This document shows positions 2,167 to 59,983 of a DNA stretch of 64,000 nt, in pieces. Both the position numbers and the translations under genes were made by a program. Each line of letters opens with the position of its first letter. The first letter of the stretch is position 1. Source of the DNA: an uncultured delta proteobacterium (GTDB lineage Bacteria > Desulfobacterota > Binatia > Binatales > Binataceae); assembly GCA_963842085.1 (NCBI GenBank), contig CAWJET010000001.1, positions 480,001-544,000 of the forward strand, in the 5' to 3' direction. The notes under the pieces are model-generated. The model saw nothing but the letters and a program-made list of their open reading frames with translations. It did no database searches and was not told where the DNA came from.

Positions 2167-2404
2167 TTTTTCGGGCGGATACCCCTGACAATGCGCCCGC
2201 GCTTCGGGCGACCTGACTGTGAGAAGATTCTCGCGACACCGAAAATTCGAGGTTCATGGCGGGCAGGGTGCCGAACTGAAAGCGAATTCATTCTCTGGAC
2301 GATGTTAGCTGGTCTCGACACGAAATTTCTCAAGCAATCGCGGAGGTTTTCCTTTGGACAGACTTCTCGCGACACCGGCGGTTCGAATCCACCCCGCTCC
2401 GCCA
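1770..2404 (+). repeat. 635-bp direct repeat copy 1 (mreB 3' end + non-coding arm + tRNA-like end); partner 42248..42881
   Basis: Direct comparison: mreB part identical by eye; about 9 differences in the 238-bp non-coding part; both copies end at CCGCTCCGCCA. Confidence 0.95.
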
Positions 2405-2437
2405 GGCAGTCAGAGCAAAACGCGTTATCTCCGAAGG
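2228..2437 (+). repeat. Conserved non-coding arm with two TTCTCGCGACACCG 14-mers, tRNA-Ser-like 3' end and downstream arm A
   Basis: 14-mer at 2228 and 2364; GGCGGTTCGAATCCACCCCGCTCCGCCA at 2377-2404; then CAGTCAGAGCAAAACGCGTTATCTCCG. Confidence 0.9.
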
Positions 2438-2857
2438 CGGACGTTGATTGCGGCGGACGGTCGCACAATATCGTTGACAGCCGAACGGCGTGGGGCTAAT
2501 CGTAAGCCGCTTAAGATAAACTAGGCCGGCGGCCGGGCGAGTATCCGACTCAGACGCGCGGTGGAGATGGAAGCGCGTTGATGAGGTCCTCGAACAGGTC
2601 GGCCTCGGGATGCCCCACGAGCGATAAACCCGGAGATCTGGCGGAGCAGTATTCCCGGTCCATCAGGTGAGAATTAATCGCGTCCGTGACAGGCGGCTGA
2701 GCAAGCACTTAAGTTGACCCAGAGCTATTCGAGCTTGAACCCGAAGATATTCACCTGGAATGTAATGCGTGACGTGCGTTTTCCAAATTAGGACACTACC
2801 CTACGCCTTTGCCGAGCTTGCGACAACGGCATCCGGCCAGTTAGGGAGGATGAATGC

Positions 2858-2953
2858 GCGACGCTCGCCGAAATCTACAACTGGGTCACCGAGGGCTTCG
2901 ACACCGCCGACCTGAAGGACGCCAAGGCGCTGCTCGACGAACTGAGCGGGTAG
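2858..2953 (+). pseudogene. C-terminal fragment of an adenylate cyclase/AAA-TPR protein
   Basis: Translates LAEIYNWVTEGFDTADLKDAKALLDELSG*, the typical C-terminus of this family; no start codon. Confidence 0.75.
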
Positions 2954-2993
2954 CATCGCCGCTGCTGGAAGGACGACTCGTGGCAGTGAAAGA

Positions 2994-3566
2994 GTGAAGA
3001 AAGTGAAAATCGAAATCGTTCCTTACAATCCGGCATGGCCGGCGGAGTTCCACGAAATCGGAAAACAGATCAGAGGGGCGGTAGGAGACGCTGCATTGAC
3101 GATTCATCATATCGGCTCTACTGCGGTGCCGGGATTGATCGCTAAAGACGTCATCGATGTGCAGATGGGGGTCGCCGATTTTTCACCGCCATGGAAGACC
3201 CGTCTCGAGGCCATCGGATTTGAGGATGGTCAAGGCTTTCGGGATCACTGCCCGCCCGGAACGGAGCTTTCAGCGGAACAGTTGGAGAAGCGCTTCTTTA
3301 AAGTGAAGCGCCGTGCGGCCCACCTGCACATCCGCGTGCAGGGACGCTTCAACTATCGATACGCAATACTGTTCCGCGACTACTTGCGCGCACATTCGAT
3401 GGCCGCGAATGCCTATGGCGAAGTGAAGAAAAATCTGGCGCGCTACTTCGCTGGCGATATGGACGCTTACTACGCGATCAAAGATCCAGTCTGCGATTGC
3501 ATCATGTGCGGTGCGTTCGATTGGGCTCGCTCCACCGATTGGAAGCCTGGACCGTCCGATGCTTAG
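2994..3566 (+). CDS. GrpB family nucleotidyltransferase-like protein
   Basis: IVPYNPAWPAEF, HHIGSTAVPGLIAKDVIDVQ and LFRDYLR motifs. Confidence 0.9.
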   Translation: MKKVKIEIVPYNPAWPAEFHEIGKQIRGAVGDAALTIHHIGSTAVPGLIAKDVIDVQMGVADFSPPWKTRLEAIGFEDGQGFRDHCPPGTELSAEQLEKRFFKVKRRAAHLHIRVQGRFNYRYAILFRDYLRAHSMAANAYGEVKKNLARYFAGDMDAYYAIKDPVCDCIMCGAFDWARSTDWKPGPSDA

Positions 3567-3699
3567 CGATCATACCTTATCGCCGCTGAGCCATAGAATG
3601 AACTCTTCCACGTAGGAGGCCGATGCCATGAATGTGCAGGACGTTTTTCGGAGGTTATGCGAGGTCATTTCGGACTCAATGCGAAAGTTGGGGATTCCT

Positions 3700-57324: not shown

Positions 57325-57846
57325 TTGAAGGTATTGATCCTCACCGGCCCCCCGGGTGCCGGGAAAAACACTATTGCATCGGTCTACGCGAACGCGCGCG
57401 AGCGATGTGCAGTGATCGACGTGGACGTAGTCAGATGGATGGTGCTGAAGCCACACGTGGCACCATGGGGCGGCGAAGCTGGGCGAAGGCAACATCGCCT
57501 CGGCGTCCGCAACGCCTGTATGCTTGCGCGCAACTTTATCGAAGAAGGATTTGAAGTCGTAATCCTGGATGTGCTCTCGGACGAGATCGCGCGACTATAT
57601 GAAGCCGCGCTGGAACCGGTGTCCGCCAATATCGTCCTCCTGATGCCGAGCTTCGAGGAGATTCAGAAGCGAAACCGGGACCGGTTGGGAACGAGCCTGA
57701 CAGACGAGGAAATCGCTAATTGCTACGAGTCGCAAACCCAACTGCGCACTTTCGACCGGAAAATCGATAACACTGGCCTCTCGCCAGCGGAAGTCGCGCA
57801 TATGCTCGTTCAAGTCCGCGATTCGGTATCGCTGCCTCGCGGATGA
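57325..57846 (+). CDS. Small P-loop kinase (AAA_33-like)
   Basis: LILTGPPGAGKN, IDVDVVR and IDNTGLS; start uncertain. Confidence 0.7.
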   Translation: MKVLILTGPPGAGKNTIASVYANARERCAVIDVDVVRWMVLKPHVAPWGGEAGRRQHRLGVRNACMLARNFIEEGFEVVILDVLSDEIARLYEAALEPVSANIVLLMPSFEEIQKRNRDRLGTSLTDEEIANCYESQTQLRTFDRKIDNTGLSPAEVAHMLVQVRDSVSLPRG

Positions 57847-58365
57847 TCTCTAGCCGGTCGGATTCGCTAAGTTTAAGAATGAGCTCTCGCAATACTTCAC
57901 TCGGCATGGTGACTCCTCCGGGGCATCTTGCACCGACCGGCTGAGTATCGAGCGTACATTCGCCCATAATTTATTCGGAAAAGCAAAAGGCGATATGAAG
58001 CACAAACGTCTCGGATTCCACAGACGGATCATCCAGCGCGTGGTGGATTTTCGGCCCTTTACTCATTGCGCTGGCCCTGGCGTCGGCTCCGCTCACTAGC
58101 TAATTAGCGCAGCTTATTTGACTTTCTCTATGCAATGGAAATAGACTTCGACTCGTCGGAATCGCAAGAAATGAATCGCGTCCGACTTTGATCCAGCCCG
58201 ACAGTGGCCCTTCCACTCGCCTTCTGACCACGTTCCGCTAGACCAACGCAAATCGTAAGACGGGAAGGCTTGAGAGAGGTCCTACGGGACGAGCTCGTCT
58301 CCAGGCGCCCATGCTGGGCCGTCCGCCCCTATCTTTTGCGCGCGGCCGCGCGGCATAGCGGAACA

Positions 58366-58791
58366 ATGTCATCTACGGGGAACCTGGCCAAGGCGCAACT
58401 CATTCTTTCGAGAAAAGAACTGCTCGACTTCGCAGCCGAGGGCAGCACCGATGACTACAAAGCGATTGTGGCCGATTGGGTCCGGGTCAAACCTGCAAAC
58501 TTCCCAGGATGGGAGCCGCAAGACCCGGTTGTCGCAGTCTTTCAAATACTCAGAAGAAACGAGCGGAGCAGGGGCGGTGATTACCTTGAGTCGATCGTTT
58601 ATGAAGCCCTAGTGAAGTGCCATCGGCAGTTGAACACTCTCCGCGGTATCTATCGCGGGGAAAAGAGACACGCAAAACAAGCCGCAGACGCGGCGCGTAG
58701 TATCGGCGATCCCGAAGTTGATCCCGATCCCGCCCTTGACTTGTCGAACCTAACCGAAAGCGAGAAGGAGCACATACGCCGCTGGCCGTGA
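58366..58791 (+). CDS. 141-aa unknown protein, paralog of 17999..18424
   Basis: Inverted copy with a conserved frame and length. Confidence 0.6.
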   Translation: MSSTGNLAKAQLILSRKELLDFAAEGSTDDYKAIVADWVRVKPANFPGWEPQDPVVAVFQILRRNERSRGGDYLESIVYEALVKCHRQLNTLRGIYRGEKRHAKQAADAARSIGDPEVDPDPALDLSNLTESEKEHIRRWP

Positions 58792-59401
58792 GCGCCGGGC
58801 CAGAATCGCTTCGTCCTATGTCGAACGGCATCCGGTGAAAAGCGGTGTGGTTCCTCAAAACTTCATCCGCGCGAATTCGTTGGTGGTTTCGATGGGCCGG
58901 CGATAGCCTGCTTTCATGGCGAAGCCGACAAGCGGAGCGCTCCCGGTCACCCGAAGCGGCAAACCCCGAGGCGGCTCGATGCCTCACGTCAGGTTCGAAT
59001 TAAGGCGTTGCAGCACATACCGGAACTACTCGAGGCGCTGAAGAGCAAGGCCGACGACTTTATCCGCCCGCATTCGTATCTTCAGCTCGTCATACCTCCG
59101 CCAACCGGTTCAAGAAGACGGACTTGAAGCGGTACGGACTGCCAGTCTAATGCTCCCGTTTTATTGAGGTCTCCGAGAAGAATTCCAATGCTGCCGCCAT
59201 TGTATGCACCTATGGTTGAAATCATCTTGTCAGATAGGGAACATTGAAAGTCATGATCGTCGCCGCCGTGGGGATCGAACCGATCTCTTTCTCTCAGAGC
59301 GTTATCTGCTCGAGCATCGCGAACGGTGCTCAGATTCCTCATTAGATCTGGGCGGTATCGATCCAAACCGCAGCCGTTATACTTCTGCGGAGGAGGGACC
59401 G

Positions 59402-59713
59402 ATGAGTAAACTTGCTGACCATCCCGCGATCCAAGAATCCTGGTCCAACTTGCTTTGGAGCCCGGGCGACATCTCCGATCCTGATCCAATCAATCCGCTC
59501 GACAGCGTCTTGAAAAACGTGACCTTCATCAAGGGCGCTGCGGGCAAACACCATCTCCAATTGACACGCGCTCAAGACGGCGCGATCGCGGCTCTCTGGT
59601 GCTGCGACAATTCGCTGGTTCGGAACCTTGAGGAGACCTTGCTCCAGTGCCTCGGCCAGACGATTCGCGAGATCGGCGAACGTACGATCCAGGACGACTT
59701 GACCCTTCCTTAG
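59402..59713 (+). CDS. Hypothetical protein
   Basis: ATG after GGAGGAGG; protein-like composition. Confidence 0.55.
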   Translation: MSKLADHPAIQESWSNLLWSPGDISDPDPINPLDSVLKNVTFIKGAAGKHHLQLTRAQDGAIAALWCCDNSLVRNLEETLLQCLGQTIREIGERTIQDDLTLP

Positions 59714-59730
59714 CTCGCTCATCGTCGTGC

Positions 59731-59983
59731 GAGATGAAACGCGTTTTGCTATGACTCTCTGCCGGAGAGGGGCGGATTCGAAACGGCGGTGTCGCGAGAG
59801 ACCTTTGCGTGGAAAAACCTGGGCAAGTATTGGGAAAATTTCGAGTTGAAGTCCGCTAGCATCCTACGGAGAGTAAGTTCGCCTTCAGTTCGGTACGATT
59901 TCCGCCGTCAACTTTAAATTCCGGTGTCGCGAGAATGCGGCTGGGTCGACGAATTCCGTCCGACGAACTCGAGTCTTCCAAGG
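59731..59983 (-). repeat. Diverged full arm + tRNA-3'-like motif + arm A
   Basis: 14-mers at 59922-59935 and 59787-59799; TTCGAATCCGCCCCTCTCCGGCAGAGAGTCATAGCAAAACGCG. Confidence 0.85.

Follow-up and report, generated by a model that had tools for sequence, protein, structure and literature searches.

Why should a stretch of bacterial DNA that encodes no tRNA carry the 3' end of tRNA-Ser over and over again? The stretch (hereafter the window) covers 64,000 nucleotides (nt), positions 480001-544000 of contig C1 in the two-contig, 4.93 Mb genome (G000) of an uncultured delta proteobacterium; the second contig is denominated C2. The repeated motif joins a T-loop-like GTTCGAA to CTCC-N-CCA, as at the acceptor end of tRNA-Ser, and runs on into AGTC. 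It is probably, with a likelihood that we place at roughly 0.72, the shared core of the attachment (att) sites of elements which encode a large serine recombinase (LSR) and a DUF2924 protein and which would target the 3' ends of tRNA genes, the copies devoid of a tRNA resulting from tandem accretion, decay and rearrangement.

The motif had been predicted at eleven places of the window, and it is present at all of them, within a few bases. Its short form, ACCGNNNGTTCGAA, is matched nine times with at most one mismatch, against a mean of 1.87 in 100 shuffled sequences, none of which attains nine. The long form (31 bp), GTTCGAA-N9-CTCC-NN-CA-NNN-AGTC, is matched eight times with at most two mismatches (2381+, 9649-, 9979+, 24599-, 42858+, 45841+, 51636+, 59783-); the mean of 100 shuffles is 0.02, and eight is attained in none. 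Weaker copies are located at 9820+, 27875- and 32160+. ARAGORN identified no tRNA or transfer-messenger RNA (tmRNA) gene in the window, and no Rfam family reached its gathering score there. Since both searches were empty, no window copy features a tRNA 5' half, as had been anticipated. The genome was scanned with nhmmer (E<=0.01), using a profile derived from ten window copies. Of the 32 places found, six are true tRNA genes (four Ser, one Tyr, one Ala); among the 26 non-tRNA matches, 13 are clustered within 89 kb (C1:482-571 kb), and 11 lie at most 5 kb from a DUF2924 or LSR gene, a distribution in accordance with the idea that the motifs are att-site cores of DUF2924/LSR elements.

Conservation was monitored in 25 tRNA-less copies, which include 24 of the 26 non-tRNA matches (C2:444543 and C2:1310580 were excluded) and the weak match C1:924820. 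The T-stem retains all five pairs in one copy, four in five copies, and three or fewer in 19, and is fully paired in all four true tRNA-Ser genes of the genome. The T-loop is exactly TTCGAAT in 17 of the 25, and AGTC is found at CCA+3 in 19. CTCC and CCA are also kept, and the CA or CC of CCA, a candidate crossover dinucleotide, is present in nearly all copies. This pattern supports the view, already put forward in the original prediction, that the motif derives from or mimics the tRNA-Ser 3' end and would be conserved as a DNA site, not as an RNA fold.

Only two LSR genes are found in the window, LSR1 and LSR2, each preceded by an overlapping DUF2924 gene; the genome hosts about eight such pairs. 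Both proteins feature the resolvase catalytic and the Recombinase domains (PF00239 and PF07508, at 2.9e-39 and 7.4e-17 in LSR1, at 2.5e-39 and 9.9e-14 in LSR2). No zinc-ribbon family was detected in either in Pfam at E<=0.001, and the C-terminal 250 residues are conserved. Other long open reading frames (ORFs) of the window, many of about 550 amino acids (aa), encode esterase, sigma-70, GroEL and hydrolases.

The neighbourhood of LSR homologs was analyzed at 80 loci from other genomes, mostly metagenome-assembled genomes recorded as Binataceae or "delta proteobacterium", along with Acidobacteriota, Alphaproteobacteria and others. A complete tRNA gene is located at 30 of the 80 loci, on the opposite strand and convergent, 170-451 nt beyond the LSR stop codon (18 Ser, 3 Gln, 3 Met, 2 Ile, 2 Ala, 1 Arg and 1 Lys). 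At nine loci a tRNA-less motif takes the place of the tRNA, and four are too short to judge. AGTC occurs within about 9 nt after CCA in 19 of the 30 tRNA-adjacent loci, all three tRNA-Gln included, and the arrangement NN(C/G)AGTC after CCA is found also at tRNA-Gln, tRNA-Ala and tRNA-Met targets. Because it is shared across these targets, AGTC belongs to the element side and not to the tRNA. In the genome under study tRNA-Ser(gga) carries AGTC and tRNA-Ser(cga) the one-base variant AGTT, an element arm following each, and the unoccupied tRNA-Ser(gct) lacks AGTC. The tRNA-Ser(cga) gene (C1:3188878) is followed by an LSR2-like element (81-88% DNA identity), the LSR of which is split by an insertion sequence (IS) of 1.29 kb; a motif copy found 8.3 kb from this tRNA is inverted. 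Upstream far ends were searched up to 4.6 kb in the LSR-homolog loci: a clear mimic was found by blastn-short in L017 only, and same-strand copies were found by nhmmer in L014, L018, L022, L047 and L081.

The association of LSR and DUF2924 is nearly constant, as 77 of the 80 loci have a DUF2924 gene immediately before the LSR, and in two of the remaining three the contig starts at the LSR. The region upstream of DUF2924, checked for small ORFs, is conserved in all reading frames. In Wolbachia phage WO a recombinase is encoded immediately downstream of a DUF2924 protein, as told in the passages on this gene pair in PMC10299305, and DUF2924 partly matches the RAMA DNA-binding domain, according to the passages on the family in PMC11342252. 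The fold model of DUF2924 has a mean pLDDT (per-residue confidence) of 74.4 and a pTM (global score) of 0.38, and matches no PDB structure in Foldseek at E<=0.001. The model of the complex of DUF2924 with LSR2 scores 0.72, and the best of three controls 0.01. Of 80 solved complexes 58 attain the score mark, as do 2 of 110 mismatched pairs, counts that are only rough, given the custom alignments. Contacts agree among model runs by at least 86%, the partner pLDDT is at least 71, and the modelled DUF2924 contacts fall at LSR2 residues 340-352 and 451-545. As DUF2924 lacks a solved relative, a memorised structure is an unlikely source of the score. According to the models, DUF2924 is most likely a protein cofactor bound to the C-terminal extension of the LSR.

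Each copy of the motif can be dissected into a left arm, a core and a right arm. Left arms fall into the families X, H (three copies at 9.6-10.0 kb plus others), V (e.g. copy 45840), K, and true tRNA bodies; right arms into R1, the element type found between core and LSR stop, Y, alias R2 (about 30-45 nt), and R3. The relevant features of the window are as follows.

2227-2433 (+), core 2381-2411: X-core-Y unit A, about 60 nt downstream of an extra mreB gene (1126-2166).
9610-9701 (-), core 9619-9649: H-type copy, inverted-repeat partner of 9927-10018 (92 nt, 90%).
9770-9852 (+), T-loop at 9820: weaker copy of H' type.
9927-10018 (+), core 9979-10009: H-type copy.
24548-24751 (-), core 24569-24599: X-core-Y unit B, 111 nt past the LSR1 stop and on the strand of LSR1.
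24863-26584 (-): LSR1, Resolvase and Recombinase domains by Pfam, 80% identical to the LSR of locus L016.
26538-27053 (-): DUF2924 gene of LSR1 (E 1.1e-47), its 3' end overlapping the LSR1 start.
27841-27891 (-): weaker copy upstream of the LSR1 cassette, with a short X-like left arm and no AGTC.
32160-32224 (+): degenerate core and Y arm; 32192-32224 is 97% identical to 2403-2435.
39673-39754 (+): partial 5' piece of the extended X unit, from repeat comparison.
41959-42231 (+): core-less right arm of an element; it takes in the final ~40 nt of an LSR gene, abuts a gene fragment and matches the arm at C1:1260380-1260655 at 92% identity.
42248-42887 (+), core 42858-42888: mreB 3' fragment and X-core unit C, with the LSR2 element arm directly after CCA.
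43143-44807 (-): LSR2, converging on the core of copy 42857, with 262 nt between its stop and the CCA of that copy.
44804-45319 (-): DUF2924 gene of LSR2, overlapping the LSR2 start by 4 nt.
45790-45875 (+), core 45841-45871: V-type element-borne tRNA mimic, followed by another element-type arm.
51627-51667 (+): tRNA-Ser-like 3' fragment, with a TTCAAAT loop, CCTCTCC-G-CCA, then AGTC.
59731-59936 (-), core 59753-59783: X-core-Y unit D, about 600 nt downstream of an extra groEL gene (60543-62171).

Three H-type copies are crowded in 400 bp at 9610-10018, where the inverted pair encloses 225 nt that include the third copy and hold no supported gene.

Left and right arms of hybrid junctions reassort around the short common core. 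By automatic clustering, R1 arms are joined to ten left contexts, among which two true tRNAs, X and V; left X is joined to Y or R1, and left H to Y, R3 or unique DNA. Two pairs of copies locate the exchange. Copies 2380 and 42857 share a left arm of 641 bp at 98% identity (42248-42887) and diverge directly after CCA. The tRNA-Ser(gga) gene at C1:2178445, the right arm of which is of the R1 family, and copy C2:1677949(-) have right arms 98.5-98.9% identical, and left arms that differ between T-loop and CTCC. Because these left arms differ up to CTCC, the exchange is to be placed 3' of TTCGAA. Degenerate C2 cores have lost TTCGAA and kept the CCGCCA/CAGT junction. The exchange is thereby confined to CTCC-N-CCA, an interval of 8 bp situated 16-22 nt on the 3' side of TTCGAA, and the crossover at the palindromic centre TT/CG/AA envisaged in the original prediction is not supported. 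An exchange within these last 8 bp would leave the tRNA intact.

A mechanism can be outlined on these grounds. The 3' ends of tRNA genes would be the natural targets, those of tRNA-Ser genes in this lineage. The LSR-side arm of the element begins with NN(C/G)AGTC and carries a second conserved motif about 26-31 nt further on, and the other end would be a half-site, GTTCGAA-N9-CTCC-N-CCA, mimicking the T-loop and the acceptor strand of tRNA-Ser without keeping the T-stem, as in V, X, K and H arms. After integration the mimic would come to lie at the far junction, and a next element inserting beside it would generate the order mimic arm, core, element arm. Repeated, the process would build tandem arrays composed of recombinase cassettes (about 3 kb) and of cargo modules lacking a recombinase. 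For most tRNA-less copies the best reading is that of a junction where the mimic arm borne by one element meets the arm of its neighbour; the window can be read as a decayed, rearranged pile of such junctions, and holds two intact cassettes (LSR1 and LSR2), several solo X-core-Y units and arm fragments. That mimic sites are used as targets, that LSRs catalyze these events, and that the events took place in this order is suggested by the layout of the sequences.

Cassettes and arrays fit this outline. Motif copies flank the LSR cassettes at 42857/45840 (LSR2), 27875/24600 (LSR1) and C1:1260350/1263304 (another LSR). On C2, three direct copies (about 1683000, 1680495 and 1677949) bound two LSR cassettes and a cargo module. 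The latter, 5.9 kb in length and recombinase-less, hosts LTXXQ, BON and receiver-domain genes, and is found 94.7-98.9% identical both after tRNA-Ser(gga) and after the tRNA-less V core C2:1677949. Docking in the absence of a tRNA has anatomical support. The tRNA-independent docking originally claimed is plausible for the several tRNA-less junctions with element DNA on both sides, and does not hold as a description of the whole family, which lies beside intact tRNAs in 30 of the 80 loci. A more ambitious proposal is at present doubtful, namely that a widespread, undescribed class of DUF2924 and LSR elements targets the CCA ends of tRNAs; that the diverged mimic each carries is the docking pad for the next; that 3-kb cassettes and cargo modules are in this way stacked, exchanged and moved in trans without a tRNA; and that DUF2924 is a cofactor of a new type seated on the C-terminal extension of the LSR. 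It would amount to an LSR-based cassette system in soil bacteria.

Recombination products were searched for in public data. Twelve public runs were found, seven of which share with window 41000-47000 at least half of the words sampled from it, and the contigs of four soil runs were aligned to window 26001-46000. The joint 42879 to 32192, present in all four runs (side 23-33 nt), is expected from unit A (copy 2380), itself outside the aligned stretch, and the joint 42886 to 41959, present in two, from C1:1260350. The joint 39492 to 42858, found in three (side 22 nt), has no paralogue explanation. The circle or inversion joints expected at the motif, like excision joints, did not appear among the joints listed for the four runs beyond those which paralogues explain. 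Contigs lose rare variants, so missing joints neither support nor refute activity, and the test is weak. Contig depth at 26.7-32.2 kb is about twice that at 32.7-35.9 kb in runs X4 and X5 and not in X1, from which no inference is drawn.

Several observations weigh against an origin of the copies by accretion of LSR elements. At 37 of the 80 LSR loci neither a tRNA nor the motif is found within 700 nt. Most breakpoints of mosaicism and homology in the window lack the motif. Window copies occur in both orientations in a region without tRNA-Ser, and, since a simple tandem array predicts neither, one has to suppose that inversions or translocations followed. LSR1 faces its core in the direction opposite to LSR2 and to the true tRNA loci. 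The junction at 41959 shares no dinucleotide with the uninterrupted paralogue, so that some junctions may be illegitimate. Among the joints listed from the contigs of the four runs, none spans the LSR2 cassette. Canonical LSRs, to our knowledge, do not as a rule integrate at attL or attR. Lastly, the right half Y is kept in every X-core-Y copy, and even in another phylum.

The last point deserves attention. Copies 2380, 24600(-), 42857 and 59784(-) are the 3' ends of a 207-nt repeat, X-core-Y. The X unit is present in five copies, 74-98% identical and all located in one mosaic region (C1:482-548 kb), and in only four of 300 other genomes of the class; it appears not to be a host gene. At locus L016, which belongs to another phylum and encodes the LSR 80% identical to LSR1, X-core-Y is found about 185 nt past the stop codon of the LSR, and another X-core 4 kb upstream. 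That X travels with LSR1-type elements is supported by such comparisons. In consequence of the conservation of Y, X-core-Y could represent, instead of a junction, an attP that has stayed intact or a landing pad that LSR1-type elements carry, and solo units could be unused sites or miniature non-autonomous elements. We regard this as rather unlikely. In its favour, both halves are conserved together in four window or genome copies, in L016 and in genome G212, Y has the motif spacing of element-type right arms, and copy 42857 combines an X half with an LSR2-type arm, which looks like the result of an insertion targeted at X-core-Y. Integration through its own attP, however, should split that attP, and the X copies of G212, G251 and G293 have no LSR within 1.5 kb.

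Other interpretations of X were tried and discarded. X bears no similarity to the tmRNA of the genome, in which its origin might have been sought. The reverse strand gives a semi-conserved peptide, interrupted by stops or frameshifts in copies B, C, D, E and L016b and without a Pfam match. A circular cassette made of a gene plus X-core-Y does not agree with the left boundaries of the mreB copies, which differ. Within the X unit the 14-nt word TTCTCGCGACACCG occurs at two places separated by about 150 nt, and TTCGA, as in a T-loop, follows each; X looks as if two decayed cores had been stacked.

The original prediction viewed the motifs as parts of a programmed, integron- or shufflon-like system, in which LSRs insert, excise and invert cassettes at reusable sites by crossover at the TTCGAA centre. 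The occurrence of copies in both orientations, the 92-nt inverted pair around 225 nt at 9610-10018, the reassortment of arms, the recombinase-less module found at two different cores, and the recurrence of gene-sized modules such as the mreB unit would all suit such a system. It is nonetheless an improbable one, as the exchange maps to the non-palindromic CTCC-N-CCA and degenerate C2 cores lacking TTCGAA preserve the CCGCCA and CAGT junction, the mreB and sigma-70 units end at gene boundaries devoid of the motif, and inversion or circle joints did not emerge from the contigs of the four runs, weak as that test is. The 40 window ORFs scanned include no member of the Phage_integrase family, hence no tyrosine integrase of the integron kind, and no gene of the Rci type, and there is no hint of a common promoter serving a series of cassettes. 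The T-stem, the only stem of the motif and the sole fold tested, is broken in 19 of the 25 copies, which disagrees with a folded site of the attC type, and the 225 nt flanked by the inverted pair, being geneless, disagree with a shufflon.

The remaining alternatives have very little to commend them. Ordinary broken tRNA-Ser genes, or a dispersed tRNA-derived repeat akin to miniature inverted-repeat or repetitive extragenic palindromic elements and unrelated to recombinases, would account for copy 51635, which resembles a plain tRNA-Ser 3' fragment, and for the true truncated tRNA-Ser(gct) fragments that occupy the core position in relatives L013 and L035, but not for a conservation that runs past CCA into AGTC and beyond, for the loss of T-stems next to preserved loops and acceptor strands, or for the 11 of 26 matches close to DUF2924/LSR genes and the arm families recurring with LSRs. 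Equally remote is the hypothesis that X-core is the 3' part of a structured host noncoding RNA with a tRNA-like end, targeted by elements: the 207-nt unit has such an end and is conserved in five copies, but has no Rfam match or tmRNA likeness, does not maintain the T-stem, and is confined to one mosaic region and four of the 300 genomes.

The region in which the LSR elements are embedded is a mosaic of single genes and fragments, including truncated transposase, decarboxylase and catalase genes, and hosts extra copies of mreB, groEL, lpxD-like and sigma-70 genes. In five relatives of the genus, window DNA matches only scattered pieces, at most about 1.7 kb long. Synteny with the relatives is regained on the right at about C1:590.4 kb; no clear synteny with them was found on the left flank, and the island is therefore not delimited. 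Piles of this sort are not unique to this genome, since L072 (CAWIMH010000035.1), from another genome, has several broken DUF2924-LSR pairs, accompanied by two motif copies that face each other head to head across 50 nt.

Besides a 3' fragment (window 42248-42644), mreB is present in the genome as three genes. The two extra units (window 1036-2208 and C1:575714-576887) are 98% alike and 87% identical to the native gene (C1:2328938-2329978). The repeat unit extends from about 90 nt upstream of the start to a terminator-like hairpin, and in the relative G008 it lies beside a different neighbour. The extra groES-groEL copy (window 60543-62536, minus strand) is 86% identical to C1:398548-400535, and the extra sigma-70 gene (37482-39131, minus strand) 78% identical to C1:2616179-2617723. 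An IS of 1.5 kb (53341-54854), with HTH_Tnp_1 and rve ORFs, has at least ten near-identical copies in the genome. Directly after V core 45840, a 1033-aa ORF (45946-49047, minus strand) encodes an unusual fusion of a Cas4-like nuclease region, an RNase H-like domain, a zinc ribbon and an IS66-family DDE transposase. An operon-like trio beside the LSR1 cassette (27958-31506, minus strand) encodes proteins of 584 and 180 aa, neither matching Pfam or PADLOC, and a type II DNA methyltransferase, and could be a module for restriction or defence. In six window proteins submitted to PADLOC, the only matches were the type II methyltransferase (30253-31506) and the Cas4-like part of the 1033-aa ORF. A fusion of alpha/beta-hydrolase and adenylate/guanylate-cyclase domains (14215-15534, plus strand) has a truncated paralogue (11776-13470, plus strand) 2.6 kb upstream.

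Among known systems, the islands housed in tRNA genes come first. The passages on such islands in PMC4383910 describe tandem arrays, displaced tRNA fragments and the Islander signature, and state, as of 2014, that serine recombinases were not known to use tRNA genes. In the portion of the tycheposon report dealing with recombinases, 910 of 937 Prochlorococcus elements have tyrosine recombinases and the rest LSRs (bioRxiv 10.1101/2020.12.28.424599). The elements described here share with the islands of these accounts the integration at tRNA genes, the tRNA-like fragments at element ends, and successive integrations resulting in arrays of older elements, partial tRNAs and recombinase-less remnants. 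An intact tRNA next to an integrase is found at C1:3188878 and at 30 of the 80 loci, and not in the window, which has no tRNA gene. They differ from the Islander and tycheposon islands so described because an LSR with a DUF2924 partner replaces the tyrosine integrase on which the Islander definition is based, the exchange at the CCA end would require no replacement of tRNA sequence, and the direct copies bounding the cassettes are diverged mimics, where the far end of an Islander is a faithful tRNA fragment. The phage WO pair shares DUF2924 and the downstream recombinase, and in the parts of PMC10299305 and PMC11342252 that treat it no tRNA target or att-site network is described. In searches of titles and abstracts, no tRNA-targeting LSR family was found, and DUF2924 surfaced in Wolbachia papers only.

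As tRNA genes are the classic targets of tyrosine integrases, tRNA-targeting LSRs would add serine recombinases to the list. If this family is confirmed, genome engineering could profit from its LSRs, the natural targets of which would be short and nearly universal, and from the dedicated protein cofactor. The family would also account for the build-up, in these soil bacteria, of mosaic islands full of gene fragments and extra housekeeping genes. In annotation, tRNA-like motifs of this type should not be labelled tRNA pseudogenes.

The phiC31 and Bxb1 integrases and their directionality factors are similar in having an enzyme with Resolvase and Recombinase domains, short att sites with half-sites around the exchange point and, according to our models, a small partner protein that would bind the C-terminal part of the enzyme. 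In contrast, the partner gene is here located upstream, overlaps the LSR start, and its product has no solved relative. The targets of the two phages are protein genes, and we know of no phage serine integrase that reuses attL or attR as targets. In the staphylococcal cassette chromosome (SCC, SCCmec), the CcrAB LSRs act on rlmH at its 3' end, modules have repeated att cores as their limits, and recombinase-less modules of the arrays are thought to be moved in trans. LSR elements at the 3' end of a conserved gene, repeated cores and recombinase-less modules are thus common to SCC composites and the elements described here. The latter differ from SCC in both target and gene content (ccrAB or ccrC, rlmH): they are directed to a tRNA and not to a protein gene, combine DUF2924 with one LSR in the place of two Ccr proteins, and carry ends that mimic a tRNA.

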